From Parcubacteria group bacterium Athens0714_16 (GTDB lineage: Bacteria > Patescibacteriota > Minisyncoccia > Phycocordibacterales > 21-14-all-36-13), in contig VMGX01000001.1 in assembly GCA_007376805.1 (NCBI GenBank), positions 70,461 through 134,460 of the forward strand: a stretch of DNA of 64,000 bases, read 5' to 3'. The notes beneath the pieces were generated by a model, which saw only the letters and a list, made by a program, of their open reading frames with translations, did not search any database and was not told where the DNA came from. The position numbers and the translations under genes are program-made. Shown here piece by piece: positions 1,447 through 62,900 of the stretch (positions are counted from its first letter, which is position 1; every line of letters starts with the position of its first letter).

Positions 1447-4083
1447 TTAGATAGTAACAATATTTACAAGTTTCCCTTTGATATATATAGTTTTTTTGAT
1501 TTTTTTGTCCCCCACCCATTTTAGAACCACTTCCGATGAAAGAGCTTTTTCTTTTATTTCATCTTCACCAAGACCGTTATCCACAGTAAACTTATCTCTA
1601 ATTTTGCCATCCACTTGAACAACAACAATAAAGTTTTCGTTTTCTTTTATTTCGTCATATTTAGGCCATTCACTTTTTTGGATAGATTCTTTTTCCCCCA
1701 TCTCTGCCCACAATTCTTCTGTCACGTGTGGTGCAAATGGAGAAAAAATTTTCAAAAACTTTTTATAATTTTCTTTACTAATTCCATTCTTATCATAAAC
1801 GAAGTTTACAAACATCATCATGGAACTTACAGCAGTATTAAATTTTATGTTTTCAATGTCTTCTCCAACTTTTTTTATTGTTTTATTTAAATAATTATTT
1901 ACACCCTCGTTTTCATTATCAACTATTTTTTCCGAAAGCCCACAAACTCTTTCAATAAATCTAACCATTCCAACAACTCCATTTGTGCTCCAACTTGTTT
2001 CCTGGTCGTAGGGGCCAACAAACATTTCATAAAGTCGAAATGCATCTACTCCAAATTTTTTAACAACATCTTCTGGATTAATAACATTACCTCTGGACTT
2101 TGACATTTTTTCTCCACCTTCACCAAGAATCATTCCATGGGAGGTTCTTCTCACGTATGGCTCGTCAGTCGGAACCAAGCCGATATCAAACAAAAATTTA
2201 TGCCAAAAACGAGAGTACAAAAGGTGCAACGTTGTATGTTCCATTCCCCCGTTATACCAATCTACAGGAGTCCAATATTTTAATTTATCCATGCTTGCAA
2301 ACTCTTTGTCATTTTTGTTATCTGCATATCTCAAATAATACCAAGATGAACCAGCCCAGTTTGGCATTGTATCTGTTTCTCTTTTTGCAGGACCTCCGCA
2401 TTTTGGACATTTTACATTTACCCATTCTTTTATATCAGCCAATGGTGATTCTCCGTTATCATTCGGCTCATATTTTTTTACATCAGGAAGTTCAAGTGGA
2501 AGTTTTTCATCAACAACCCATCCTGGATTTAAAATTTCACCTTCATTAAATTTTTGATTTTGGATTTCTGATTTTGAATTTGGAACTTCTTTGGAATTTG
2601 GTGCTTGTAATTTGGAATTTTCCATTGATTTTTTGCACAATTCACAAAAAATCAATGGTATTGGTTCTCCCCAATACCTTTGTCTTGAAAAAATCCAATC
2701 GCGTAATTTATAAGTTGTTTTGAGTTCCCCACCAACAAATTTTGTAATTTCTTTAATCGCTTCTTCACTTTTCATTCCATCAAATTTTCCTGAATTCCTT
2801 AATACACCAAACTCTGTCCATATCTCATTACCAGCAAGAATCTTTTTAGTTTTTTCATCAATCGCAGTTGTAGTATCAAAATTATGAAATCCTGTCGGGA
2901 AAATTCCTCCAACCACAGGACTATTTGGATATGGATTGATTACGTTTATTATTTCAATTTTATCTGCGTTTATCTGCGATTTTTTATCTGCGTTCATCTG
3001 CGATGCGAATGCAAAGTCGCGTTCGTCATGTGCCGGAACCGCCATTATTGCTCCGGTCCCATAACCAGCTAAAACATAATCAGCTATAAAAACTGGAATT
3101 TCTTTTTTGTTTGCAGGATTTATTGCTTTAATCCCTTTTAATTCAATACCTGTTTTTTGTTTGCCTTCAGCCGTTCTGTCTATATCTTTCTTTTTTGCTG
3201 TTTCAGAAATATATTTTTCAACTTCTTTAAAATTTGAGATTTGAGATTTGAGTTTTGAGATTATTTCATGTTCTGGCGCCAAAACTAAATATGTAGCGCC
3301 AAACAAAGTGTCTGGTCGAGTTGTAAATACATTTACTTCATTTTTATTTTCAGATTTGAGATTTGAGATTTTAGATTTTATTTCAAAAGCAATCTCTGCT
3401 CCCTCACTTTTCCCTATCCAATTTCTCTGTTGAATTTTTATTTTTTCCAAAAATTCTGTTTTGTCCAAATCATCATATAATCTTTCAGCATATTTTGTTA
3501 TGGCTAACATCCATTGTTCCTTTTCTCTTTTTTCAACTGGCCCACCACATCTTTCACAAACACCATTAACAACTTCTTCATTAGCTAAACCAATTTTACA
3601 ACTCAAACACCAATTTATTGGCATCTTTTTTTTATAAGCGAGACCGTGTTTAAAAAATTGTAAAAATATCCACTGAGTCCATTTGTAATATTCAGGACTT
3701 GAAGTATTAATTTCACGAGACCAATCAAATGAAAACCCCAGCGATTTTAATTGTTTTCTAAAATTGTCTGTATTTTTTTTAGTTATTATTTTTGGATTTA
3801 CACCTGTTTTAATCGCATAGTTTTCCGTCGGTAAACCAAAAGCGTCCCATCCAATTGGATAAAGCACATTAAATCCTTCGGCTCTTTTTTTTCTGGCAAC
3901 AACGTCCATGGCCGTATAACCTCGTGCATGACCAACATGAAGTCCCTCTCCAGATGCATATGGAAATTCTATTAAACAATAATATTTGGGTTTTTTCTTA
4001 TCTTCCGTTGTTTTGTTTATTTCATCTTTCTCCCAAATCTTTTGCCATTTGCTTTCTATTTTTGAATGATTGTATTTCCCCAT
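1447..4083 (-). CDS. leuS: Leucine--tRNA ligase
   Basis: 878-aa ORF. HVGHARGYTAMDVVARKKRAEGFNVLYPIGWDAFGLP (HIGH region) and KMSKSRGN motifs. Contains low-complexity and NADK-repeat insertions. Confidence 0.95.
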   Translation of the reverse strand: MGKYNHSKIESKWQKIWEKDEINKTTEDKKKPKYYCLIEFPYASGEGLHVGHARGYTAMDVVARKKRAEGFNVLYPIGWDAFGLPTENYAIKTGVNPKIITKKNTDNFRKQLKSLGFSFDWSREINTSSPEYYKWTQWIFLQFFKHGLAYKKKMPINWCLSCKIGLANEEVVNGVCERCGGPVEKREKEQWMLAITKYAERLYDDLDKTEFLEKIKIQQRNWIGKSEGAEIAFEIKSKISNLKSENKNEVNVFTTRPDTLFGATYLVLAPEHEIISKLKSQISNFKEVEKYISETAKKKDIDRTAEGKQKTGIELKGIKAINPANKKEIPVFIADYVLAGYGTGAIMAVPAHDERDFAFASQMNADKKSQINADKIEIINVINPYPNSPVVGGIFPTGFHNFDTTTAIDEKTKKILAGNEIWTEFGVLRNSGKFDGMKSEEAIKEITKFVGGELKTTYKLRDWIFSRQRYWGEPIPLIFCELCKKSMENSKLQAPNSKEVPNSKSEIQNQKFNEGEILNPGWVVDEKLPLELPDVKKYEPNDNGESPLADIKEWVNVKCPKCGGPAKRETDTMPNWAGSSWYYLRYADNKNDKEFASMDKLKYWTPVDWYNGGMEHTTLHLLYSRFWHKFLFDIGLVPTDEPYVRRTSHGMILGEGGEKMSKSRGNVINPEDVVKKFGVDAFRLYEMFVGPYDQETSWSTNGVVGMVRFIERVCGLSEKIVDNENEGVNNYLNKTIKKVGEDIENIKFNTAVSSMMMFVNFVYDKNGISKENYKKFLKIFSPFAPHVTEELWAEMGEKESIQKSEWPKYDEIKENENFIVVVQVDGKIRDKFTVDNGLGEDEIKEKALSSEVVLKWVGDKKIKKTIYIKGKLVNIVTI
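2951..3000. repeat. Tandem ATCTGCG iteron array (4 units, ~11-nt period) inside leuS coding sequence, translated in-frame as SQMNADKKSQINADK
   Basis: ttatctgcgtttatctgcgattttttatctgcgttcatctgcg read directly. The same iteron occurs at 6762-6866, 28384-28478, 44917-44958 and 58606-58612. Confidence 0.7.
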
Positions 4084-4090
4084 TTTATTT

Positions 4091-4145
4091 ACCCTATTAA
4101 ATAATTCGCCCGAAAGTGAATTCCTGTAAACAGGATTTAACGGGG
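4091..4145. repeat. Degenerate MITE/REP-like element with inverted termini ACCCTATTAAAT / ATTTAACGGGGT
   Basis: Inverted termini related to the ACCCTGTTAAAT TIR family. Inner palindrome cctgtaaacagg. Immediately upstream of the leuS start. Confidence 0.45.
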
Positions 4146-4343
4146 TTAATTATACAATAAATTTCTTGTTTAAAAAATGACTAAAAATTAATTGTTGTAA
4201 AAAAAATATTTTTTGATACTATGTGGATTCGGTTTTATGGTTTTTGGATTTAAAACCGAAAGAACGTTAAAAAAGGACATGGTGATGAACAAAAGGGCTA
4301 GTACAAGGAACTAGTATCCTGGCAATCGCCAACATTTTTTGTA

Positions 4344-4366: not shown

Positions 4367-4490
4367 CTTTATTTGGTTTGCAAAATAAAAATATTATGAT
4401 AAATTACAGACGCGACCCTTCTTGGATTATGTGGAAAACGTCCAGGGGTACGGCTCAAATCTCCGAGCTAGAGGAGAGATAAAAACGGCG

Positions 4491-6180: not shown

Positions 6181-6260
6181 CTGTCCGCCTCTGGCGGAAG
6201 TGGAGCGACTATATTTTTTGAGGATCCAGCTCCACTTTTGTAACTTATTTTTATTAAATT
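6181..6260. repeat. Dispersed repeat copy A (ccgcctctggcgg hairpin plus AGTGGAGC...GCTCCACT hairpin)
   Basis: 35 nt (gcgactatattttttgaggatccagctccactttt) are identical to the reverse complement of 62853-62887. Confidence 0.6.
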
Positions 6261-6761: not shown

Positions 6762-6866
6762 TATCTGCGTTTACCCTGTTAAATAAATTTGCTCAAGCAA
6801 ATTTTCTACTTTGTAGAATTTAACAGGGTTAATCTGCGGTTTTGTTATCTGCATTCATCTGCGGAA
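6762..6866. mobile_element. Miniature inverted-repeat element (57 bp, TIR ACCCTGTTAAAT) flanked on both sides by ATCTGCG iterons
   Basis: ttatctgcgtttACCCTGTTAAATaaatttgctcaagcaaattttctactttgtagaATTTAACAGGGTtaatctgcggttttgttatctgcattcatctgcgg. The TIRs are identical to those bracketing the GIY-YIG ORF at 58628-58915. Confidence 0.6.
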
Positions 6867-6867
6867 T

Positions 6868-7965
6868 TCAAATCTTGAATTCAACGACATCCCCGTCTTT
6901 AACAACATATTCCTTCCCTTCCGTACGAACAAGCCCTTTTGCTTTTGCATTTGCATGTGAACCGGCGTCAACTAAATCTTTCCAATTTATAATTTCTGCA
7001 CGAATAAATTTATCTTTGAAATCAGTGTGAATTGCCATCCCCGCCTCTGGCGCACTTGAATTTCTTTTTATAGTCCACGCCCTCGTCTCATCCTCGCCTG
7101 TCGTCAAAAATGTTATCAAGTCCAAAGCCGAGTACCCTTTTTTAATCAACTCATTTGTTCCGTCATCAAAAACATTTAATTCCTTTCTAAATTCTTTTGC
7201 GTCCTCAACACTCAAGTCCTTCAACTCGTTTTCAATTCCGGCATCAACAATAACAAACTCTGAGCCAGAATCTTTAAAAAACTTCATTAACTTTTCATAT
7301 CTCTCATCTTTTATCTCACACACATCCTTACAACCACTTTTTTTATTTAAAACATAAATTATTTTTTTTGTAGTCAAAAGGTTTAATGTCTTCAAAACTT
7401 CCCTTTCTTCTTTTTCTAAATCAAGTGTTGACGCGAGTTTCCCCTCGTCTAAAACTGCATATACTTTTTTAAAAACCCCTTCTTCAAAAATTGCTTTCTT
7501 ATCTCCCTTCTTAATATCCTTCGCGAGAGTATTAATTCTTTTTGAAACGACTTGAAAATCAGACATTATTAATTCCAAATTTATTATTTCAATATCTTTG
7601 AGCGGGTCTATTTCATTATGAACATGTGTTATATTTTTATCTTCAAATATTCTCACAACCTCCGCAATTGCATCGGTTTCTCTTATGTTCGCCAAAAATT
7701 GATTTCCAAGCCCCTCGCCTTCCGACGCTCCTTTCACAAGCCCCGCAATATCAACAAATTCCACAACCGCTGGAATTTTCTTTTTTGAATTTGAAAATTT
7801 ATTTAATATCTCAACTCGTTCATCGGGCACAGGAACAATCCCCACGGATGGGTCAATTGTGCAGAAAGGATAATTCTCCGCCGGAACGGACTTTTTCGTC
7901 AGCGCATTAAATAGCGTGGACTTCCCCACGTTTGGTAGCCCTACGATTCCTATTGAAATATTCAT
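6868..7965 (-). CDS. ychF: Ribosome-binding ATPase YchF (Obg-family GTPase with TGS domain)
   Basis: N-terminal IGIVGLPNVGKSTLFNALT P-loop, NYPFCTIDP, C-terminal TGS (VRTEGKEYVVKDGDVVEFKI). Confidence 0.9.
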   Translation of the reverse strand: MNISIGIVGLPNVGKSTLFNALTKKSVPAENYPFCTIDPSVGIVPVPDERVEILNKFSNSKKKIPAVVEFVDIAGLVKGASEGEGLGNQFLANIRETDAIAEVVRIFEDKNITHVHNEIDPLKDIEIINLELIMSDFQVVSKRINTLAKDIKKGDKKAIFEEGVFKKVYAVLDEGKLASTLDLEKEEREVLKTLNLLTTKKIIYVLNKKSGCKDVCEIKDERYEKLMKFFKDSGSEFVIVDAGIENELKDLSVEDAKEFRKELNVFDDGTNELIKKGYSALDLITFLTTGEDETRAWTIKRNSSAPEAGMAIHTDFKDKFIRAEIINWKDLVDAGSHANAKAKGLVRTEGKEYVVKDGDVVEFKI

Positions 7966-14868: not shown

Positions 14869-15216
14869 ATTAGAGAAAGTATCCGTATCCTCTAAAAACC
14901 CCATGCAACCATTCAATTGAATTAGAGAAAGTATTTCTCAACATTATTTTTGTCTGTTTTTGTATACAACCATTCAATTGAATTAGAGAAAGCATCCGTA
15001 TTCCCCCAAAACTTCTATACAACCATTCAATTGAATTAGAGAAAGCATTTCTCAACATTATTTTTGTCTGTTTTTGTATACAACCATTCAATTGAATTAG
15101 AGAAAGTACCCGTATCCTCTAAAAACCTCCATACAACCATTCAATTGAATTAGAGAAAGCATTTCTCAACATTATTTTTGTCTGTTTTTGTATACAACCA
15201 TTCAATTGAATCTTTA
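14868..15216. repeat. Higher-order tandem repeat: 26-nt unit CAACCATTCAATTGAATTAGAGAAAG alternating with two spacer types (A ~27 nt, B 35 nt), ~3 copies of a ~115-bp super-unit
   Basis: Direct reading. Spacer B (catttctcaacattatttttgtctgtttttgtata) is identical three times. Spacer A variants are near-identical. Overlaps the 3' end of the Fic ORF. Confidence 0.8.
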
Positions 15217-16136
15217 TCTCTTGAATTACTATCTGCAACAAACAAGGTCAAAGCTGTAAGAGTTGGCGGTGTTAATTTAGATAAATTTAAAATACCGGCT
15301 TTTTTCAAAAACCATATAAAAGCATACGCTCCCGTTCTTTTGTTTCCATCAACAAGCGGATGATTTTTTACTATAAAATATAAAATGTGTGCAGCTTTTT
15401 CTTCTACTGTAGGGTATAAATCTTTTTTATCAAACGATTGAAAAATTGAACCAACAATTCCTTCTATACTTCCATCAACACGTTCTTGTCCAAACAAATC
15501 ACCCGCTAAATTCTTTTTAGTAAGTTCTTTTTTAAAATCAGAAAAAGCATTAAACAATTCTTGAGCTACAAAAACTATTCGTTTTTTAGTCGCACCTTTT
15601 TGTGGTAAATAAGATTTGTCGTAGGCGTCAAGCGACAACCATGTGTTTGCAAAAGCAGAAATCAATTCAATCATACTGGCATGATCAACGCTTGAACTCG
15701 CGGGAAGTGAGTGCTTAATATTTTCAACCGCTTTTTGAAATTGCGTATAGTTTTTTGCAATTTGTTTTTTGTTTATTACATAGCCATCAACAATATATTG
15801 ACGAAGTGTTTTGGTTGCCCATTTACGAAATTCAATCGCTACTCTCGAATTTGTTCTATAACCAATTCCTAAAATAACATCGAGTGAATAAAGTGTGATT
15901 GGTTTATCAGAATTTGCATTATGCATTTTTTGCATATTGCTTTTTTCTTCAATTTCACCATCTCTAAATATATTCTTTATGTGACGAGATACCACAGATT
16001 GATCAACACCAAAAAGATCCACAATTTGCGCTTGCGTTGCCCAAATAGTTTCGTGTGTAAAATCACCTTTTAATTCTATGGAACCACTTTTGGTTTGATA
16101 TACAACAATATCTTTAGTTTTTTTAACTTTTTTCAT
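15150..16136 (-). CDS. Fic/Doc family protein with RhuM-like N-terminal domain
   Basis: Fic motif HPLVDGNKRTGAYAF. N-terminal region matches the RhuM-type pattern (TKSGSIELKGDFTHETIWATQAQIVDLFGVDQSVVSRHIKNIF). C-terminal ~25 codons run into the tandem repeat. Confidence 0.75.
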   Translation of the reverse strand: MKKVKKTKDIVVYQTKSGSIELKGDFTHETIWATQAQIVDLFGVDQSVVSRHIKNIFRDGEIEEKSNMQKMHNANSDKPITLYSLDVILGIGYRTNSRVAIEFRKWATKTLRQYIVDGYVINKKQIAKNYTQFQKAVENIKHSLPASSSVDHASMIELISAFANTWLSLDAYDKSYLPQKGATKKRIVFVAQELFNAFSDFKKELTKKNLAGDLFGQERVDGSIEGIVGSIFQSFDKKDLYPTVEEKAAHILYFIVKNHPLVDGNKRTGAYAFIWFLKKAGILNLSKLTPPTLTALTLFVADSNSRDKDSIEWLYTKTDKNNVEKCFL

Positions 16137-16444: not shown

Positions 16445-16723
16445 TTATAAACCTGAGATTATGTTTGAAATAAAATTTGGCAACGATTTTGATATTGAAT
16501 AATAAACGAGTAAGCTTCTCTGATCAGGTGAGAGTATTTCAACGGCTTCCAAAAGTTTTATATGTTTTGAGGTGGCTTGAATAGAAATCTTTAATTCCTC
16601 GGCTATGTCACCCACCGATGCTTCGCCTTCTTTTTTAATAAATGAAATAATTGCTAGCCGACGATAATTCGCCAACGCCTTGATTGATCTCTCTAATTTT
16701 TTAAATTGTTTTGCTTCAATCAT
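16445..16723 (-). CDS. ArsR/SmtB-family winged-HTH transcriptional regulator
   Basis: LANYRRLAIISFIKKEGEASVGDIAEELKISIQATSKHIKLLEAVEIL matches the ArsR HTH pattern. Confidence 0.55.
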   Translation of the reverse strand: MIEAKQFKKLERSIKALANYRRLAIISFIKKEGEASVGDIAEELKISIQATSKHIKLLEAVEILSPDQRSLLVYYSISKSLPNFISNIISGL

Positions 16724-17043: not shown

Positions 17044-17886
17044 CTATAAAAAATACATATCTTGTCCATAACCACCAACACCAATATATTCTGCCTCGCC
17101 TTTCAAAATAGATTCGTATGGCTTACAAGCAAAACATCCTTTTTCTCCGCGAGGACAATTGAAAATTTCTTTTTCTCTGGCCTCTTTAACTTTTAAAGCA
17201 ATCGCAAGCACTTTTTCTTTGGCTTCATCAATATTTGGCAATTTCATTTCTATTGGTTCGTCATCTTTATCAAGATACCAATATGATGCTCCTGAAATTT
17301 TTCTTTTTTGTAATGCATTTAAAAGCAAGAGGTAGATTGGAAGCTGAAGTGAATCTTCGGCTTCGTCATTTTTACCAGTTTTAAAATCAATGATACGAAC
17401 ACTGTCATTTTTTTCAACATATTCCAACCAATCAATAAGCCCACAAAGTATTATATTTTCATCTTCGGAAAGATAAAAATTTGGTGGCATATTATTATGT
17501 CCATCTTTTATTTTTACAGTTTTTCTTGCAATAGGTCCCGGATTTTTTATAACCCGTTCTATCATTTCAACTCCTCTTTTTTTAAATTCATTTTCTTCGT
17601 CATCATTTTTAAATCCGCCTTTTTTACCAGATACTTGCGACCAAGCATTTTCAAAATCGGCTAAAAAATCTCGCTTCATTCTTTCTTCAACTGGAATATT
17701 TTTTGATGATTCAAGTGTGGTATGCACTGCCTGACCAAGAGAAAGATACGGATTAACTATATTTATTTTTCTCCCAGTTTTTGGGTCTTTATAAATATTG
17801 TGCAAATAATAAGCCCGTGGACATTTCAAAAAATCCCCCATTGAAGAATGCGATACCCATATTGACTTGTATTTATCTGGCGTCAT
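17044..17886 (-). CDS. PD-(D/E)XK nuclease, Cas4/RecB-C-terminal-like with 4-Cys cluster
   Basis: N-terminal Cys (LKCPRAY), IDFKTGK (D/E-x-K), C-terminal CPRGEKGCFAC (Cx6Cx2C) typical of Cas4-type Fe-S nucleases. Confidence 0.6.
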   Translation of the reverse strand: MTPDKYKSIWVSHSSMGDFLKCPRAYYLHNIYKDPKTGRKINIVNPYLSLGQAVHTTLESSKNIPVEERMKRDFLADFENAWSQVSGKKGGFKNDDEENEFKKRGVEMIERVIKNPGPIARKTVKIKDGHNNMPPNFYLSEDENIILCGLIDWLEYVEKNDSVRIIDFKTGKNDEAEDSLQLPIYLLLLNALQKRKISGASYWYLDKDDEPIEMKLPNIDEAKEKVLAIALKVKEAREKEIFNCPRGEKGCFACKPYESILKGEAEYIGVGGYGQDMYFL

Positions 17887-27841: not shown

Positions 27842-28672
27842 CTAAAATTGATTTACCAATCTCAAATCTCCAGAATAAAGCATCCTTATATCTGGAATTT
27901 CGTATTTAAGCATAACCAATCTGTCTATACCAACCCCAAATGCGAAACCCTGCCACTCTTGTGGATTAATCCCACAATTTTCTAAAACCTTTGGATGAAC
28001 CATGCCCGCACCCATTATTTCTATCCACCCGGTTCCCTTACATATTGAACAACTTGAATTTATTTTTTTATCTTTTGCACATTTAAAACATGTCATATCA
28101 ACTTCAAGTCCCGGTTCAACGAATGGGAAATAACTTGGTCGAAAACGAATATCAATTTTTGCTTCAAAAAATTTTTCTAAAAATTCCTTCAAAACACCTC
28201 TAAGATTAGCGAGTGTAGTATTTGGAGTAATCATAAGTCCTTCCAATTGATAAAACTGTGCTTCATGTGTTGCATCCGTTGCTTCATATCTAAAACATTT
28301 TCCGGGAGCAATAATTTTTATAGGAGGTTTATTTTTCTCCATATATCTAATCTGAACAGGAGAAGTGTGTGTTCTTAACAACGCAGATTCTCGCAGATTT
28401 TCACGCAGATTTACGCCAATGTTTTTATCTGCATTCATCTGCGTTTTTTTATCTGCGTTTATCTGCGTCTTAATCCAAAAGGTATCCCACATATCTCGTG
28501 CTGGATGATTTGCAGGAATATTTAGTGCATCAAAATTATGATATTCATCTTCCATGTGTGGCCCATCCACTATTTCAAATCCCAAATCATCAAATATTTG
28601 AGCTATTTTCATCATTGCCAATGACAATGGATGATAATGTCCTTTTTCTTTGTTTTTGTCTTGTGGCTCCAT
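27842..28672 (-). CDS. pheS: Phenylalanine--tRNA ligase alpha subunit (short form lacking N-terminal coiled coil)
   Basis: HPARDMWDTFWI, FRPSYFPFVEPGLEVDM, GAGMVHPKVLENCGI motifs. Contains the NADK-repeat insertion. Confidence 0.85.
   Translation of the reverse strand: MEPQDKNKEKGHYHPLSLAMMKIAQIFDDLGFEIVDGPHMEDEYHNFDALNIPANHPARDMWDTFWIKTQINADKKTQMNADKNIGVNLRENLRESALLRTHTSPVQIRYMEKNKPPIKIIAPGKCFRYEATDATHEAQFYQLEGLMITPNTTLANLRGVLKEFLEKFFEAKIDIRFRPSYFPFVEPGLEVDMTCFKCAKDKKINSSCSICKGTGWIEIMGAGMVHPKVLENCGINPQEWQGFAFGVGIDRLVMLKYEIPDIRMLYSGDLRLVNQF
28384..28478. repeat. ATCTGCG iteron array in inverted arrangement (3x CGCAGAT then 4x ATCTGCG) inside pheS, translated in-frame (INADKKTQMNADKNIGVNLRENLRES)
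   Basis: Direct reading of cgcagattctcgcagattttcacgcagatttacgccaatgtttttatctgcattcatctgcgtttttttatctgcgtttatctgcg. Confidence 0.7.
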
Positions 28673-41506: not shown

Positions 41507-42493
41507 CTACAATACCGCCACCGAACGAACAGACCCATCACCCCAGTGACTGTCAGAATTGCCACAACTAACGTGAGAAAGTCCACCATTAGTGGAATTA
41601 CCACCAAACAAACAAATCGTCAAATGGCCAAAAAATTCATCATACCGGCACCAAGTGTTTGTGTTGCCATCATTTTTACGAGGCATGTGTTGGTACATTT
41701 GTGGAATCACATTGGCTTCAATTGTTTTTTCAAAACGGATTTGTTTAATTTTTAAATCTAACAAATCAGCTACGTGTGGTTTGAGCTGTGTTTCAAACTC
41801 ATCTGCAGAAATATTGAATCTAGATTCCCACGGAATGTTAGAATCATATTTAATTTTTTCTTCCTTTCTTAGTTTGAGTATGACCGAACTGAGAAAGTTA
41901 TCATTTTCATACATCTGCGAACCACTTGTATATTGTGGTTTACAACGTGTATCAATGAGTAGAGTTACACCGTCTGTTTCAACAATTTTTAGTGTAATTA
42001 AATTACCGTTGATATTATGAAGAATTTTACCAGCAGTAACATTTTCGTAAAACCAATCATTAGGTTTTATTTTCCAGCCGGGATAATTATTCTTTGGCAT
42101 AAATGCCATTTTTGGAATAAAATGTGGTTCAAGCATTAAACTTTTCCAATATTGAATTTTCTTCTTTCCATATTTTTGCAAATTCTCTGCAAATTGGGTT
42201 AAATCAAATTCCTTACCGAAGAAAGCTAAATGTGCTTTCTTCTCTGACTCAAGTATTGCATTGAGCCAGGAGGGATATTTAATTTCAGATTTCATCATTG
42301 ATTTAAACAAAGAAAAAATTTCTTCTGCTAAAATTTCTCCGTTTTGACTTAAAATTTTATTTAAATCATTTATGGAAAAATTCTCATAACACTGAAGTAA
42401 TTTAATCGCTCTAGATGTTGCCGGAATAATTGCACGAAGTGTTTCGGCAAATTTTCCGATTTCATTTGGGGTTGTTCCATTCTTTTCAGACAT
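41507..42493 (-). CDS. Hypothetical protein
   Basis: 328-aa ORF, no recognisable motif. Confidence 0.45.
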   Translation of the reverse strand: MSEKNGTTPNEIGKFAETLRAIIPATSRAIKLLQCYENFSINDLNKILSQNGEILAEEIFSLFKSMMKSEIKYPSWLNAILESEKKAHLAFFGKEFDLTQFAENLQKYGKKKIQYWKSLMLEPHFIPKMAFMPKNNYPGWKIKPNDWFYENVTAGKILHNINGNLITLKIVETDGVTLLIDTRCKPQYTSGSQMYENDNFLSSVILKLRKEEKIKYDSNIPWESRFNISADEFETQLKPHVADLLDLKIKQIRFEKTIEANVIPQMYQHMPRKNDGNTNTWCRYDEFFGHLTICLFGGNSTNGGLSHVSCGNSDSHWGDGSVRSVAVL

Positions 42494-44846: not shown

Positions 44847-44916
44847 AATAATTAACAGGTGTAAGTATACCGAAAATAACCAAGAAAGCAAGAAAACAAA
44901 GAAGCAAAAAACATCT

Positions 44917-44958
44917 GCGTCTATCTGCGATTTTTTATCTGCCTGAATCTGCGTTCAA
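44917..44958. repeat. ATCTGCG iteron array (4 units) forming the 3' end of fba and the fba-rplY spacer
   Basis: catctgcgtctatctgcgattttttatctgcctgaatctgcg. The last 7 codons of fba (FLNADSGR) are encoded by the iterons. Confidence 0.65.
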
Positions 44959-45819
44959 AAAATTAAACAATTTCATTCTTTCTTCCACCACCTTTTCCAT
45001 CGCCAATACGACACTTTTCATTATTTTATACGGTGCTATTTCGTCAGGATTTTCTTGAAGAAATAATTGAATTGCTTTTTTGTATGCCAATCTTATTTCT
45101 GTGTTTATATGTATGATGGAAATTCCAGCTTTTATAGCTTTTTTAAAATCTTCATCGGTTGTCCCTGAACCACCGTGTAGAACTAACGGTACACCTGCTT
45201 CTTTTCTTATTTCTTTTATAAGTTCTATATTTAGAGACGGATCTTTCCCAACCCCCAACATACCATGAATATTGCCAACGGCTGGTGCAAACAAATCAAT
45301 CCCGGTTTTTTTAACAAAATATTTTGCGTCTGTTGGTTTTGTTAATGAGTTTTCATCTAAATTTACATCTTCTGGTATTTCATCCAAAATTTTTGACGAA
45401 GAGCCTATAAATCCAAGTTCTGCTTCAACTAAAATTTTTGGATTAGTTTTTTTAACATATTCAACACACTGTTTTGTTATTTTTATATTTTCTTCAGTAC
45501 TCAACTTTGCTCCATCAAAAATTACAGAATCAAAACCAGCATCTACAACTTCTTTAACCCTTTCAAAAGAATATGTATGGTCAGCATTTAAAAAAATTGG
45601 ATAGTTGTGTTCTTCGCGTAAACTTTTAACCAACGCTACAACTTGTTTAATTCCGATAAAATCTCTTTCTCCTTCTGATACACCAATTATCACTGGTAAA
45701 TTAAGTTTTTTCGCTACATTAAAAACAGCATGCAATCCTTCAATATTTGAAATATTAAAATGTCCAACGGCAACACCTGTCTTTTCAGCATTTTCTATTG
45801 TTTTCTTTAATGTTTCCAT
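44935..45819 (-). CDS. fba: Class II fructose-bisphosphate aldolase family protein
   Basis: GHFNISNIEGLHAV, LNADHTYS, PAVGNIHGM, LVLHGGSGTTDEDF motifs. Confidence 0.8.
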   Translation of the reverse strand: METLKKTIENAEKTGVAVGHFNISNIEGLHAVFNVAKKLNLPVIIGVSEGERDFIGIKQVVALVKSLREEHNYPIFLNADHTYSFERVKEVVDAGFDSVIFDGAKLSTEENIKITKQCVEYVKKTNPKILVEAELGFIGSSSKILDEIPEDVNLDENSLTKPTDAKYFVKKTGIDLFAPAVGNIHGMLGVGKDPSLNIELIKEIRKEAGVPLVLHGGSGTTDEDFKKAIKAGISIIHINTEIRLAYKKAIQLFLQENPDEIAPYKIMKSVVLAMEKVVEERMKLFNFLNADSGR

Positions 45820-47211: not shown

Positions 47212-48213
47212 TTAATAAGATTCTTGATTTCTTTTAATAACTTTCACAATCGCTTTTTTAATTGATTCGACATCAAGTCCATAATGTTTAATTAATTCAG
47301 CCGAAGAACCTGATTGTCCAAATTTATTATTTATTCCAACAAATTCAATTGGTACTGGATATGTTTTTGCCAAAAATTCTGCAACCGCAGAACCCATACC
47401 TCCTGCAATTTGATGATCTTCAACTGTAACAATCGCCCCCGTTCTTTTTGCAACACCTAAAATTAATTCTTCATCCATTGGTTTAACGGTGTGATTATTT
47501 ACAACCAAAACTTGTATTCCCTCTTTCTCTAATTCTTTTGCACAAAGCAACGCATTATAAACAAGATATCCAATCGCAATAATTGTAACTACCGGATTAC
47601 TAGAATCCCACAAAATATCTGCCTTTCCAATTTTAAAAGGAGAATCCTCTGTGGTTATAACCGGCACCTTGCTTCTGTCGAAACGCATATAAACAGGTTT
47701 ATTATGTTCAATCATTTCACCAACAGCTTTTTTTGCTTCTTCATAATCGCATGGAACAATTACAGTTACATTTGGTAAAATTCGCATGAGTGCAATATCT
47801 TCAAGTGATTGATGTGTCGCACCATCTTCACCAACGGCAATACCAGCATGTGAACCAATCATTTTTACAGGAACATTGTTTAGTGCAATTGTGGTTCTTA
47901 TCTGTTCCCAATTCCTCCCGGGACTAAAAGCAGCAAACGAAGTCATAAAAGGAATTTTGCCATAACAAGCAAGACCAGAAGCAACTGTTGCCAAGTTTTG
48001 TTCAGCAACACCAACTTCAAAATATCTTTCAGGAAATCTTTCTTCAAACTGAGTTAATCTTATTGAATCAGATAAATCCGCAGATAAAGCAACAACTTTC
48101 CTATTTTTCTCCCCAGCAAAAAGAAGCCCTTGCCCAAAACCGTCACGAATGTATTTTTTTTCTACATCCGCATCAAAAAGTTTTGGGTTTAAATGTTTGG
48201 TTCTATTTAGCAT
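47212..48213 (-). CDS. Transketolase, C-terminal (pyrimidine-binding) subunit
   Basis: RDGFGQGLLFAGEKN..., FEVGVAEQNLATVASGLA, C-terminal TK_C domain. Split-transketolase arrangement. Confidence 0.85.
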   Translation of the reverse strand: MLNRTKHLNPKLFDADVEKKYIRDGFGQGLLFAGEKNRKVVALSADLSDSIRLTQFEERFPERYFEVGVAEQNLATVASGLACYGKIPFMTSFAAFSPGRNWEQIRTTIALNNVPVKMIGSHAGIAVGEDGATHQSLEDIALMRILPNVTVIVPCDYEEAKKAVGEMIEHNKPVYMRFDRSKVPVITTEDSPFKIGKADILWDSSNPVVTIIAIGYLVYNALLCAKELEKEGIQVLVVNNHTVKPMDEELILGVAKRTGAIVTVEDHQIAGGMGSAVAEFLAKTYPVPIEFVGINNKFGQSGSSAELIKHYGLDVESIKKAIVKVIKRNQESY

Positions 48214-48418
48214 ATTCGAAATGATTATACTTGTTTTTTGTTTATTAAATTTTTATTACGATTACAAAAATGAAAAATGTAAATCTCAAAATGTAAAATG
48301 ACAATCAAAAATGTCAAAATCATTTTATAACTTTGCATTGTCATTTTTCATTTTGATTTTTTAATTTTCAATTCTTATTATTATAAAATCCGATACTTAC
48401 AACAAAACATACAAAAAA

Positions 48419-49231
48419 CTAACCAGAACTCAGTTCCAACAAAAATCTCTCTCCCTGTTCCTTATTTGGTGCAATGCCATGCCACTTGTAATCATTTTCA
48501 ATTTCTTTTATTCCCTTCCCAGGAATTGTGTGGGCAATGATTACAGTTGGTTTGCCACGAGAAATTTTTGCCATTTCAACGGCATCAATAAATTTTACAA
48601 AATCATGCCCGTCAACCTCAATAACATTCCAATTGAACGCCTCATATTTATTTCTCAATGATTCTAATGGCATTACATTCTCTGTTCTGCCGGTGATTTG
48701 GATATTATTTCTATCTATAATTCCTATTAAATTATCTATTTTATATTTTCCGGCAAACATTACAGATTCCCAAAGATTTCCTTCCTGATGTTCCCCGTCG
48801 GACATTATGCAATATGTGTAAAAATCTTTTCCATCCATTTTTGCTCCAAGTGCAATACCACACGCCTGTCCTAAACCACAACCAAGCGGACCAGACGTAG
48901 TTTCCATTGATGGCAAAAATTTTCTGTCTGGGTGACCTTGAAAAATTGTTCCAAATTTTCGCAAACCATTTTCTAATTCATCTACAGAAAAATATCCAGC
49001 ATGAGCCATAGCAGAATATCTCGCAGGAACAATATGACCGTTTGATAAAATTAATCTATCTCTCTCGGGCCAGGCCGGCTCTTTTGGTTTATGTTTTAAT
49101 ATATGAAAATAAAAAGCAGTAAATATGTCCGCCATACCAAGAGACCCACCTGTGTGCCCTGATTCAGCAGAAACAAGAGATTTTATAATTGTTTTACAAA
49201 CTTCATTCGCAATTTTTTTTAATTCAATCAT
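48419..49231 (-). CDS. Transketolase, N-terminal (TPP-binding) subunit
   Basis: HTGGSLGMADIFTAFYF, SNGHIVPARY, GPLGCGLGQACGIALG, SDGEHQEGNLWE. Confidence 0.85.
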   Translation of the reverse strand: MIELKKIANEVCKTIIKSLVSAESGHTGGSLGMADIFTAFYFHILKHKPKEPAWPERDRLILSNGHIVPARYSAMAHAGYFSVDELENGLRKFGTIFQGHPDRKFLPSMETTSGPLGCGLGQACGIALGAKMDGKDFYTYCIMSDGEHQEGNLWESVMFAGKYKIDNLIGIIDRNNIQITGRTENVMPLESLRNKYEAFNWNVIEVDGHDFVKFIDAVEMAKISRGKPTVIIAHTIPGKGIKEIENDYKWHGIAPNKEQGERFLLELSSG

Positions 49232-51216: not shown

Positions 51217-51344
51217 TTACCCTGTTAAACAAAATTTGAACATTTTCAAATTTTAATTTTAAATTATTTTTTTAAAAACATAGACTTTTATCTTTCTAAT
51301 TTTTGTAGAGCATACACCACACATATTACAAACCCTATTTAAAA

Positions 51345-58566: not shown

Positions 58567-58626
58567 ATTGAAACGTAGATTACCGCAAATAAAAACGCAA
58601 ATCCACGCAGATTAAATAAAATTAAT

Positions 58627-58881
58627 TCACCCTGTTAAATAAGACTTGAGACGATTTTTAATAAACATTTTTCCCAAGTGTGTTTTCAAGTATTTTTCTC
58701 TATGTGTAGCATCGTCCCGACCTAGACATGCTTCATAGTATATCAATTTTATAGGTATTCTGTTCTTTGTTGATTCTACGAGTCCTTTTTTATGCTTCTC
58801 AAGTCTTAATTTTAAATCTTTTGTATACCCCGTATAAAACTTTTTATCTTTACTCGATTTTAATACATAAACATAATACAT
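58627..58881 (-). CDS. GIY-YIG nuclease family protein (YhbQ/UPF0213-like, 84 aa)
   Basis: YYVYVLKSSKDKKFYTGYTKDLKLRLEKHKKG...IKLIYYEACLGRDDATHREKYLK: GIY...YIG(YTG) beta-hairpin, conserved Arg, Glu. Confidence 0.7.
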   Translation of the reverse strand: MYYVYVLKSSKDKKFYTGYTKDLKLRLEKHKKGLVESTKNRIPIKLIYYEACLGRDDATHREKYLKTHLGKMFIKNRLKSYLTG

Positions 58882-58915
58882 ATCACCTTTGATTAAAAAT
58901 TATTTAACAGGGTAA
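58628..58915. mobile_element. 284-bp element: 12-14-bp terminal inverted repeats ACCCTGTTAAATAA bracketing a GIY-YIG nuclease ORF
   Basis: Left attcACCCTGTTAAATAAgac (58626-58645), right aattATTTAACAGGGTaaag (58899-58918). The ORF fills the interior. CGCAGAT iteron sits immediately outside the left end. Confidence 0.6.
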
Positions 58916-60071
58916 AGTAATAAAGACCCATCGCAATTAAAATAACACCTTCTACTAATGTCGCCCATTTTGTAAATTTAGGTGATGTTAACCATATATC
59001 CATTTTATATATTGCAATAAGAAATACGATTATTTCATCTATTAAATAAAATACAATAAATATACCTATATAAAACAACGTGCCAAAATTTGAGATTCCT
59101 CTTTCAGCTAAAATACCCGCAAAAGAAACAGGGACTGCTGCTGAACAAGGAAATTCAATTAAAGTAACCAAACCAGAAAATACAACCACACCGAGAAGTA
59201 TCTGCAAAACCTTGTTTGTCTCACCAAACATATTTTTAATTTTTGTTGCCGCTGATGAAATAATTTTTGAATCAGACGATTCACAAACCAAGCCCTGTTT
59301 TCTAATTCTTATAAATTCTTTTATAAAATAAATCCCGCCAGCCAATCCAACAAACCCAACCACCAATTCAATTGTTTGGATGTAAGAACTAACTAAAACA
59401 AAGAGACGGTGCCAGAGAATAATCAATAAACCATAAACAAGGGCCGTAACAACAAGATATGCTCCTCCATATAAAATTATTTTCTTTCTCGAACGAAGTT
59501 TGAGAACAAGCCCAAGTATTAAAATAAGTGCACCAAGCGAACACACGTTCACACCGTCAAGTGTCCCAAGAACGACCGAGAGTGCCACAAGAGAATAATT
59601 TTTTACATTAATTTTCCCTAAAATTGGTAAATTTACAGACGAATCCTTAGCTCCGTCTTCGGTTTTAATAACGCCCGTAGTTTTTAATTGATTTTGAATT
59701 GATGTCTCTATATCTTTTCCTATTTTATCTTCTGAATCAAAACCGGCAAAAAAATCTTTCCCTACAAATGTAAGTGGAACAACACCAAAATATTCCCCCT
59801 TTTTAATTTCTTCCAATTTTTTAAACATCGGACTTATATTTGCCTCAATATCAACTGCGTATCTGTTTATTATAAGTCCTTCATATTTCCCTTCTATTTT
59901 GTCTAAAAATGCATTTTCCGCAATACAGTGTGGACATGTTTCACTATAATAGAAATCCAAATTTAATTCTGATTTTATTTCTTGTGCATGAACACGACCA
60001 AAAGAAATAAAAAATAAACCCAGAATTAAGCTGAGGGCAAAAAAAACAAAAAATTTATCCTTGAATTTCAT
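58893..60071 (-). CDS. Thioredoxin-like domain fused to CcdA/DsbD-like transmembrane domain
   Basis: Signal peptide, SETCPHCIAENAF (CxxC thioredoxin motif), membrane domain with VCSLGAL and FPCSAAVP conserved Cys. Confidence 0.6.
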   Translation of the reverse strand: MKFKDKFFVFFALSLILGLFFISFGRVHAQEIKSELNLDFYYSETCPHCIAENAFLDKIEGKYEGLIINRYAVDIEANISPMFKKLEEIKKGEYFGVVPLTFVGKDFFAGFDSEDKIGKDIETSIQNQLKTTGVIKTEDGAKDSSVNLPILGKINVKNYSLVALSVVLGTLDGVNVCSLGALILILGLVLKLRSRKKIILYGGAYLVVTALVYGLLIILWHRLFVLVSSYIQTIELVVGFVGLAGGIYFIKEFIRIRKQGLVCESSDSKIISSAATKIKNMFGETNKVLQILLGVVVFSGLVTLIEFPCSAAVPVSFAGILAERGISNFGTLFYIGIFIVFYLIDEIIVFLIAIYKMDIWLTSPKFTKWATLVEGVILIAMGLYYFTLLNNF

Positions 60072-62769: not shown

Positions 62770-62900
62770 CACAGCTCCACTTTTTTATAACAAACCATAC
62801 TTATTTTTAAGTTTTGTAACTCTCTTGTAGTTTTGTGATACTTTGTCTTTTCTAGAAAAGTGGAGCTGGATCCTCAAAAAATATAGTCGCTTCGCTCCTT
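62770..62900. repeat. Dispersed repeat copy B (inverted orientation relative to 6181-6260), includes inverted repeat cagctccactttt...aaaagtggagctg and a GC hairpin at 62920-62943
   Basis: 35-nt identity to the reverse complement of 6206-6240. cagctccactttt shared with 6228-6240. Confidence 0.6.

Follow-up and report, generated by a model that had tools for sequence, protein, structure and literature searches.

Rickettsia palindromic elements (RPE) are dispersed palindromic repeats which are found in frame in unrelated housekeeping genes as well as in spacers, and no transposase is known for them (PMC10969869). Insertions are also found in rRNA genes. Large intervening sequences (IVS) of 23S rRNA encode a protein of the family PF05635/TIGR02436, the "23S rRNA intervening sequence protein", which is related to the protein Avd of diversity-generating retroelements (PMC10053308). 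Here we analyze a stretch of 64,000 nt, in the following called the window, from Parcubacteria group bacterium Athens0714_16, a member of the Paceibacteria within the candidate phyla radiation (CPR; contig VMGX01000001.1, positions 70,461 to 134,460). Arrays of the heptamer ATCTGCG lie inside its aminoacyl-tRNA synthetase genes leuS and pheS, at the 3′ end of the aldolase gene fba and in spacers. Proteins and rRNAs of CPR bacteria (Patescibacteria) are known for odd insertions. We suggest that the arrays are probably miniature, non-autonomous copies, devoid of an open reading frame (ORF), of a small mobile nuclease cassette whose terminal inverted repeats are built from heptamer arrays.

Array architecture and host genes

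The window has a G+C content of 31.6%, and ATCTGCG occurs in it 21 times on both strands. Dinucleotide-preserving shuffles give an expectation of 2.18 (sd 1.7), and none of 100 shuffles attained 21. The sites which the original prediction had listed in leuS, in pheS, at the fba end and in spacers were all found again on re-reading the window. The plain period of about 11 nt assumed there has to be given up: the actual unit measures 41 nt and has four heptamers at a spacing of 10/14/10, that is, ATCTGCG-N3-ATCTGCG-N7-ATCTGCG-N3-ATCTGCG, with N7 usually being xTTTTTT (the repeat finder delimits a unit of 41–45 nt). Three full 41-nt copies are present (2962–3002, 28427–28467 and 44913–44953), and aligned over 45 nt (2958–3002, 28423–28467 and 44909–44953) they are 82–91% identical. 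Taking together the window, three sister metagenome-assembled genomes (MAGs) and metagenome contigs and fetched loci, we collected 54 distinct four-heptamer arrays with unrelated flanks. With unrelated flanks throughout, the copies have sharp edges. There are also lone heptamers at 41913, 48079, 49288 and 54193, no more than would be expected by chance.

The host genes leuS (1447–4083, 878 aa), pheS (27842–28672, 276 aa, the short Paceibacteria form) and fba (44935–45819, a class II aldolase of 294 aa) are all located on the minus strand and read their arrays antisense. The reading frames of leuS and pheS are open across the arrays, and translation yields repeat-derived peptides in LeuS, in PheS and at the Fba end, just as originally predicted. 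The leuS array (2962–3002, plus strand) is a 41-nt half element without the opposite arm, which is read antisense as SQMNADKKSQINADK (aa 361–375). It sits where the length varies relative to Thermus LeuS, and this single-arm copy has no RNA structure (fold z +1.3). The fba array (44913–44953, plus strand), likewise a single arm, overlaps the end of the gene, and the remainder lies within the spacer between fba and rplY (L25). It provides the final seven codons (LNADSGR) and the TAA stop, with the C-terminus of Fba reading ...KLFNF-LNADSGR.

The copy in pheS (28382–28467) is a full palindrome with a CGCAGAT arm at 28382–28420, a 6-nt loop and an ATCTGCG arm at 28427–28467; on the minus strand it encodes the segment TQINADKKTQMNADKNIGVNLRENLRESA (aa 69–97). 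An imperfect inverted repeat of three CGCAGAT and four ATCTGCG had been noticed here. This description is borne out with one amendment, as the CGCAGAT arm has a fourth, degenerate heptamer (CGCCAAT) and a spacing of 10/12/10. Other full copies, such as the one in the TsaD gene of a sister genome, are also palindromes of four CGCAGAT, a loop and four ATCTGCG. The whole pheS copy folds as a rod-like hairpin (−40 kcal/mol, z = −8.2) of 7–9-bp helices with internal loops between them. In the AlphaFold model of PheS the pLDDT is below 50 over residues 58–99, which include the insert, as would be expected for a flexible loop; the model is too poor in the insert for any placement beyond a low-confidence loop. 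None of the solved PheS structures has the segment. PheS of the window is 100% identical to the protein on record for Athens0714_16.

Two more arrays are found in spacers. The repeat reported around 6762–6866 does exist, yet the array (6763–6863, plus strand) is interrupted by a different, 57-nt hairpin element at 6773–6829, which leaves heptamer 1 at 6763–6769 and heptamers 2–4 at 6832–6863. Its position is immediately downstream of the stop codon of ORF 6868–7965 (minus strand). In the sister genome KR11_S3.mb.10 (KR11) the orthologous array is uninterrupted (locus L040, 2581–2621). The heptamer at 58606–58612 had been taken for a single one; it is real but part of a degenerate four-heptamer array (58574–58612, minus strand, one exact and three near heptamers) lying outside the GIY-YIG cassette described below, 15 nt from its right end.

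Presence in sister genomes and absence in close relatives

When one genome of each species was scanned, the array core turned up in many copies in the three sister MAGs H52-bin030_1 (H52), KR11 and Paceibacterota SO_2017_GW3_13 (SO_2017). These are 78–86% identical to the window at the DNA level and carry arrays at matching places in leuS, pheS and fba. The LeuS gene of H52 (L028) has its array at the site of the window, and SO_2017 (L020) has an array with a nested hairpin at the fba end at the same position as in the window.

Other relatives have empty sites. The PheS proteins P0007 (251 aa) and P0008 (253 aa), 90% and 84% identical outside the gap, do not contain the segment and read KPENSKLLLRTH at the position where PheS of the window has K, 29 aa and LLRTH. 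The empty pheS site is found in L049 and L052. On L052, a syntenic contig, the 804-aa LeuS has FAKKFNIPIVEVI in place of FA+SQMNADKKSQINADK+IEIINVI of the window, and Fba ends without array in KLFNNL. Together L049, L052 and L053 contain one ATCTGCG in 40 kb, and their sites in pheS, leuS and fba are empty. Since relatives with proteins 84–90% identical do not have the segments, these are lineage-specific, and the comparison of LeuS, PheS and Fba with their orthologues thus agrees with the proposal that they are insertions. The arrays are polymorphic in presence and absence between related genomes. Comparison of filled with empty sites reveals that the element replaced 18 nt of native sequence in pheS and 12 nt in leuS.

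LeuS of H52 and KR11 contains an extra array-flanked insert of about 170 aa which is not found in LeuS of the window. It is located at L028 4469–5007 in H52 (likewise in KR11, L040/L106), in frame at the start of the editing domain, and is flanked by the inverted arrays SQIIADKKLQINAD ... NLRESASNLRSSA. Its cargo has a weak match to DUF4178 (E 1.4e-4), below the curated cut-off.

Reading frame of the genic copies

In the sister genomes in-frame arrays are also found in MiaA, TsaD, MnmA, LigA, ValS and RNase HII, at a second LeuS site and in an unknown ORF. Overall, the hosts are thus LeuS (two sites), PheS, ValS, MiaA, TsaD, MnmA, LigA, RNase HII and one unknown ORF. Within ORFs of at least 150 aa all 21 arrays are read in the same frame, giving xQ(I/M)NADKKxQ(I/M)NAD (the NADK frame). 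When orthologues are collapsed, about 12 independent genic sites remain, 11 of them in this antisense frame and one (RNase HII) in the second antisense frame. The two sense frames which are stop-free in 47–51 of the 54 arrays are not used at any of these sites; their products would be hydrophobic peptides of the type ICVYLRFFICV. The peptide of the NADK frame, [ST]Q[IM]NADKK..., is hydrophilic and probably disordered. Even against an expectation of 1/3 the frame bias has P = 5e-5. Such a pattern would be expected if the arrays land at random and only harmless insertions survive.

Next to many arrays there is a short, perfect hairpin whose sequence differs from copy to copy; in TsaD of H52 (L027, about 4440–4490) it is ACATTTCGGC-TTTA-GCCGAAATGT. 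We weighed whether these hairpins are inverted duplications of the target site; the 10-bp palindrome in TsaD lies in native-looking codons.

Arrays in rRNA genes and probable exchange between copies

In the 23S gene of H52 composite inserts built from arrays are found at three helix tips. One of these inserts consists of 146 nt in place of a 6-nt loop, at about positions 283–288 of the large-subunit rRNA model; another is located at what we take to be, on reading the flanks against Escherichia coli, the helix-45 site of classical IVS. The 16S genes of H52 and KR11 carry arrays as well. When folded, full copies and rRNA inserts give rods in which 7–9-bp helices alternate with regular internal loops (z −7.4 to −8.2). 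In general, the sister genomes have rRNA genes rich in inserts (L008 4851–7279, L048 846–2658, L041 145–2126): besides the three ATCTGCG-array composites the 23S genes have an AT-rich heptamer insert; inserted in the 16S genes are arrays, a group I intron and an ORF of the GIY-YIG type which has inverted ends of its own.

Silent changes between the window and H52 were counted at codons for identical residues: 3 of 40 such codons are affected in the element, and 278 of 909 in the remainder of pheS and leuS (P = 0.001). Between the window and SO_2017 the element is no more conserved than the sequence elsewhere. The low level of silent change points to homogenization or constraint at the DNA level. 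In SO_2017 the arrays of pheS and fba contain an identical nested hairpin at a matching position, which would be most simply explained by exchange between copies. Furthermore, an array copy in an unrelated ORF of H52 (L021) has brought along about 25 nt of the leuS flank (DERDYAFA). Judged from these sequences, the array is best regarded as a DNA element and not as a peptide module.

Arrays beyond the clade and array-flanked cassettes

An array in Lutibacter is identical to a window copy at 37 of 41 positions, and arrays occur in other Bacteroidota, too. There a polysaccharide locus has them between its small cassettes, as CGCWGAT-loop-ATCTGCG palindromes. One Planctomycetia MAG and one Cloacimonadota MAG contain complete arrays of four heptamers with no more than one mismatch; the other single hits of this cross-phylum search are chance matches. 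The array core has no match in viral contigs and the Lutibacter palindrome none in the plasmid collection. Comparison with Rfam gave no family for the arrays of the window (gathering thresholds) and none for the array region of Lutibacter (E up to 1). Integron attC sites were considered for the cassette-like arrays of Lutibacter and dropped, as no R′/R″ core (GTTRRRY) is visible.

The small ORFs beside arrays code for toxin–antitoxin proteins, for GxxExxY proteins (PF13366/TIGR04256, PD-(D/E)XK fold) and for four-helix-bundle proteins (PF05635/TIGR02436). In a survey of PD-(D/E)XK proteins the family PDDEXK_3 is of unknown function and has undergone multiple transfers between divisions (PMC3424549). 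In locus L069 a GxxExxY gene lies inside a palindrome consisting of CGCAGAT-GA-CGCAGAT-AAAAAAA-CGCAGAT, the ORF and then four ATCTGCG-like heptamers. Its left arm, CGCAGAT-N2-CGCAGAT-A7-CGCAGAT, resembles the arrays of the window. Homologues 75–85% identical to this GxxExxY protein are encoded on contigs of Firmicutes, Planctomycetaceae, Flavobacteriaceae and Prevotellaceae, and at all four examined loci (L115, L116, L117 and L118) arrays of the CGCAGAT type are found on both sides. The terminal inverted repeat of L116 is perfect (39 of 39), L118 has a matching pair, and the arrays of L117 (Flavobacteriaceae) and L115 (Planctomycetaceae) are degenerate or complex.

We further examined nine GxxExxY or four-helix-bundle genes drawn from Bacteroidota, Proteobacteria, Cyanobacteria, Cloacimonadota and Patescibacteria. 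All nine are flanked by heptamer arrays with element-specific units, and in eight of them the arrays are inverted. GxxExxY genes in annotated replicons of Bacteroides, Bernardetia and Sphingomonas all have inverted arrays. Array-flanked four-helix-bundle genes are found in cyanobacterial plasmids, in Cloacimonadota and in the sister genome H52, where the TIGR02436 gene has inverted arrays. Of the four such genes examined in cyanobacterial plasmids, three have inverted arrays; at the fourth, from Nostoc (L111), the two flanking arrays are unrelated and not inverted. In two cases the cassette sits within an operon: on a Picosynechococcus plasmid (L113) a four-helix-bundle gene with inverted GGAGATA arrays lies between cas10 and cmr3, and on a Sphingomonas replicon (L110) a GxxExxY gene with CGCGAAG arrays lies between fabD and fabG. 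In the literature we found no description of the arrays in CPR genomes, nor of array-flanked GxxExxY or four-helix-bundle cassettes.

A GIY-YIG cassette and its miniatures

The window itself holds a pair of an ORF-bearing cassette and ORF-less miniatures with the same ends. At 58629–58913 (minus strand) an 84-aa ORF (58627–58881), for whose gene PF01541 (GIY-YIG) is on record, is enclosed by 12-nt inverted ends, ACCCTGTTAAAT at 58913–58902 (minus strand) and ATTTAACAGGGT at 58640–58629. The left end of this cassette also encodes the last codons (FTLLNNF) of the upstream ORF 58893–60071. From its layout it looks like a tiny autonomous cassette. The hairpin which interrupts the spacer array (6773–6829, plus strand, 57 nt, fold z −6) has the same ends, ACCCTGTTAAAT and ATTTAACAGGGT, and no ORF, and it is nested exactly in an N3 spacer between two heptamers. 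A second ORF-less miniature of 56 nt, ACCCTATTAAAT...ATTTAACGGGGT, is located at 4091–4146 (plus strand), 8 nt upstream of the leuS start codon. Many further miniatures with GIY-YIG ends are present in the sister genomes, and in PheS of SO_2017 one of them is translated in frame within the array and adds 20 aa.

A solo end of the GIY-YIG cassette is found at about 51219–51230. Related GIY-YIG ORFs with other inverted ends are found in the 16S rRNA gene of KR11 and, in a decayed form, in L052. For the KR11 16S gene we also thought of ATCTGCG arms as the brackets of its GIY-YIG gene and rejected this on reading the sequence, as the gene has its own inverted ends CTCAACACTTTTTTT.

Other repeat-derived segments and repeats

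The PheS loop from DTFWxK to LLRTH has 7 residues in 43 of 120 Paceibacteria homologues and 10–60 residues in about half of them, the full range being 4 to 60. At least three unrelated types of repeat peptide are found in it, namely, NAD.../...RESA, KSEIQNSKL and NNQxPTT...SSVV. LeuS of the window likewise has segments of the KSEIQNQK type and of AAATCTC heptamers which are not present in LeuS of L052. With several types of repeat peptide in the PheS loop and in LeuS, repeat-derived insertion into tolerant loops is thus a general habit of the clade.

Tandem AAATCTC of period 7, in four to five units, is located in leuS at 3232–3258 and 3347–3380 and is translated as KSQISN / KISNLKSEN. These runs lie on either side of the start of the editing domain, and L052 LeuS does not have them. 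At about 2560–2640 of leuS CCAAATT/AAATC repeats encode NSKLQAPNSKEVPNSKSEIQNQKF, about 35 aa not found in L052 LeuS; this peptide type, KSEIQNSKL, also occupies the PheS loop of other Paceibacteria.

Three other repeats of the window were noted. An AT-rich palindrome at 48256–48386, with 65-nt arms 1 nt apart and AAAATGN heptamers, is located in the spacer between ORFs 47212–48213 and 48419–49231 and is possibly another element of the array type. An inverted pair of 44 nt (6199–6242 and 62853–62896) is 93% complementary over a distance of 56 kb, and similar sequence is present in the sister genomes (L020, L029 and L048). Between 14700 and 18100 there are several families of direct repeats of 35–114 nt with the core CAACCATTCAATTGAATTAGAGAA, upstream of ORFs 15150–16136, 16445–16723 and 17044–17886.

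Discussion

The resemblance to RPE which the original prediction had pointed out is supported by the lineage-specific in-frame insertion into conserved enzymes. Like RPE, the array is inserted in frame into housekeeping genes, here of a bacterium with a small genome, where it adds peptides presumably compatible with the fold, and the repeat is dispersed and translated as an extra peptide in LeuS, PheS and the hosts of the sister genomes. There are differences, however. The arrays measure 41 nt (half) or about 86–90 nt (full) and RPE about 100–150 nt; the arrays are built from heptamers at the fixed 10/14/10 spacing, half copies are common, and the host belongs to another phylum. Moreover, arrays are also found in 16S and 23S rRNA, their sequence is shared across phyla, and there is a candidate parent cassette with a GxxExxY gene. 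By analogy the arrays would work like RPE, but size, build and host phylum would set them apart from the RPE family.

[quoted passage not shown] For the GIY-YIG miniature the ORF-bearing relative lies in the window. For the arrays it would be the CGCAGAT-ended GxxExxY genes on contigs of Firmicutes, Bacteroidota and Planctomycetota and in L069. In contrast to MITEs the candidate parents carry PD-(D/E)XK, GIY-YIG or four-helix-bundle proteins and not a DDE, serine or HUH transposase, and at the arrays native bases are replaced. The likeness to 23S IVS is that arrays sit at rRNA helix tips with stem-forming inverted ends (23S of H52, 16S of H52 and KR11); this applies to the related loci, as the window has no rRNA gene, and different from IVS the arrays are also found in protein-coding genes and are translated.

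In cyanobacteria short tandemly repeated repetitive (STRR) sequences and small dispersed repeats have reportedly been described by Mazel et al. in 1990 and by Elhai et al. in 2008. They are similar in being heptamer-based arrays and very small nested mobile repeats, but STRR use other heptamers and are strictly tandem (period 7). The four loci of the cyanobacterial plasmids suggest a link between STRR and the cassettes. Repetitive extragenic palindromes mobilized by RAYT proteins (REP/REPIN-RAYT) were rejected since many copies are intragenic and the ORFs found between arrays are not Y1 transposases, a statement which refers to between-array ORFs only. An intron was rejected as Rfam finds none in the window, and an intein as peptides of 15–29 aa are too short and have no intein motifs.

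We suggest that the arrays came about as follows. A full copy would be a palindrome of four CGCAGAT, a short loop and four ATCTGCG as in pheS, and many copies, such as those of leuS and fba, would have retained one arm only. Copies may have reached spacers, 16S and 23S rRNA genes as well as protein-coding genes across the Paceibacteria clade. The genomes are small and gene-dense, and therefore most insertions strike genes. Those which persist would be the harmless ones: in rRNA the palindrome would lengthen a helix tip, and in proteins the persisting copies would be located in surface loops which tolerate them, with translation in the one antisense frame which has no stops and yields a hydrophilic peptide. 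Established copies might then be kept alike through ectopic gene conversion, and a second cassette family, that of the GIY-YIG element, could use the arrays as landing pads. Taken together, the arrays appear to behave as small selfish palindromic DNA. We infer that the arrays of the Paceibacteria descended from a cassette of the GxxExxY type or were mobilized in trans by its nuclease, the prime suspect being the PD-(D/E)XK GxxExxY protein. Movement may have proceeded by a nuclease break and copying repair and not by cut-and-paste transposition. The lack of target duplication, the replaced bases and the co-transferred flank in L021 fit such a movement, without proving it.

Several observations weigh against this proposal. 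No target-site duplication is seen when filled and empty sites of pheS and leuS are compared, and MITEs of the DDE type do not typically replace 12–18 nt. An inverted repeat is missing altogether from half copies. The cassette ends have a period of 9–10 and the arrays a spacing of 10/14/10. No gene for the candidate mobilizing enzyme, GxxExxY, was found within the clade in about 0.5 Mb of sampled Paceibacteria DNA. Since two unrelated ORF families have the same flanking design, the ORFs could be cargo and not the mobilizing enzyme. The in-gene copies are mostly common to species which are only about 80–85% identical in DNA, so the insertions are mostly old; most of the in-gene copies are older than the split of the four sister species. 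Finally, a use of the arrays by the host may be compatible with the sequence.

Such a use could be at the RNA level, with the arrays as hairpins for processing, stability or termination (RNase III sites or 3′-end protectors, comparable to REP/BIME elements or rRNA IVS) and translation being incidental. We regard this as unlikely. The rods formed by full copies and rRNA inserts are in its favour, as are the copy directly after a stop codon (6763–6863), the copy across the fba stop and the 23S inserts at helix tips, including the region of classical IVS sites. However, half copies of the leuS kind are unstructured and yet equally conserved, a strong hairpin within the pheS coding sequence is likelier a burden than a benefit, close relatives manage without any copy, and there is no general tie to operon ends. 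Considerably less probable still is that the arrays are "iterons", sites bound by a DNA-binding protein of the chromosome which serves replication, segregation or the organization of the nucleoid, and that they spread because the cell uses them. In the original prediction the label "iteron" is no more than a description. Paired heptamers 10 bp apart correspond to one helical turn, the architecture is kept in non-coding copies and across phyla, and the silent sites of the element are unusually conserved. Still, nothing favours a role as replication origin or Rep-binding site: no rep or par gene and no origin context is found near any copy, copies lie within unrelated ORFs and rRNA genes, and relatives at 84–90% protein identity are essentially without arrays. 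GxxExxY cassettes, which move horizontally, have inverted ends made of these heptamers, and this explains the architecture without a host function. Iterons of plasmids and phages, direct repeats of about 17–22 bp at the origin beside a rep gene and an AT-rich unwinding region, were rejected since the copies are dispersed and none of them has a rep gene nearby.

We would give just as little credit to a peptide module under selection at the protein level, with the NADK segments as linkers or interaction motifs in tRNA-related enzymes. It is true that enzymes of tRNA and translation (LeuS, PheS, ValS, MiaA, TsaD and MnmA) are over-represented among the hosts and that the reading frame is constant. 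But the identical DNA is found in spacers and rRNA, the peptide is predicted to be disordered, the fba copy is in another frame and supplies only the stop, and the RNase HII copy is in another frame as well. Nor does selection for the peptide fit a PheS loop which accommodates at least three unrelated repeat peptides and has only 7 residues in 43 of 120 homologues, and a streamlined genome, being rich in such genes, would be expected to show this host bias. Replication slippage of a short motif, independently at each site, would account for the plain tandem AAATCTC in LeuS (four to five units, period 7), which is slippage-like. As an origin of the arrays it is highly improbable: slippage yields uniform periods, and no fewer than 12 unrelated sites as well as four phyla have the spacing of 10/14/10, the T6 spacer and the bases of the spacers in common. 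It is barely conceivable that the arrays are artefacts of assembly or binning, a refuting case named in the original prediction. All data are metagenome assemblies, in which repeats can create chimeras. The frames are open, though, and the arrays recur at orthologous positions in Athens0714_16, in the three independently assembled sister MAGs H52-bin030_1, KR11_S3.mb.10 and SO_2017_GW3_13 and in many metagenome contigs, such as those from Hainich, that is, in different studies and from different sites.

The origin of the arrays from a small nuclease cassette can be extended to a wider picture, which is possible but tentative and which we hold with clearly less confidence. Heptamer arrays could be the ends by which a large and hitherto undescribed class of very small cassettes is recognized, cassettes which move between phyla and carry a GxxExxY PD-(D/E)XK, a GIY-YIG or a four-helix-bundle "IVS protein". 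These cassettes would be copied in by repair at a nuclease break, and their ORF-less remnants would be the classical 23S rRNA IVS, the STRR-like arrays and the protein insertions of CPR bacteria. If this is true, the near-identical array of Paceibacteria and Lutibacter marks gene flow between an episymbiont lineage and its possible hosts.

In summary, a mobile heptamer-array repeat which is tolerated in a single frame would be one concrete source of the insertions in CPR proteins. Besides Rickettsia, this would be a second, unrelated lineage with small genomes in which essential aminoacyl-tRNA synthetases and tRNA-modification enzymes are lengthened by selfish DNA. The arrays can mislead gene callers, alignments and marker-gene phylogenies. 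They connect subjects which are mostly dealt with separately, namely, in-frame palindromic repeats, rRNA intervening sequences and the widespread, uncharacterized GxxExxY and four-helix-bundle ORFs, and they offer a testable candidate for the movement of these elements.

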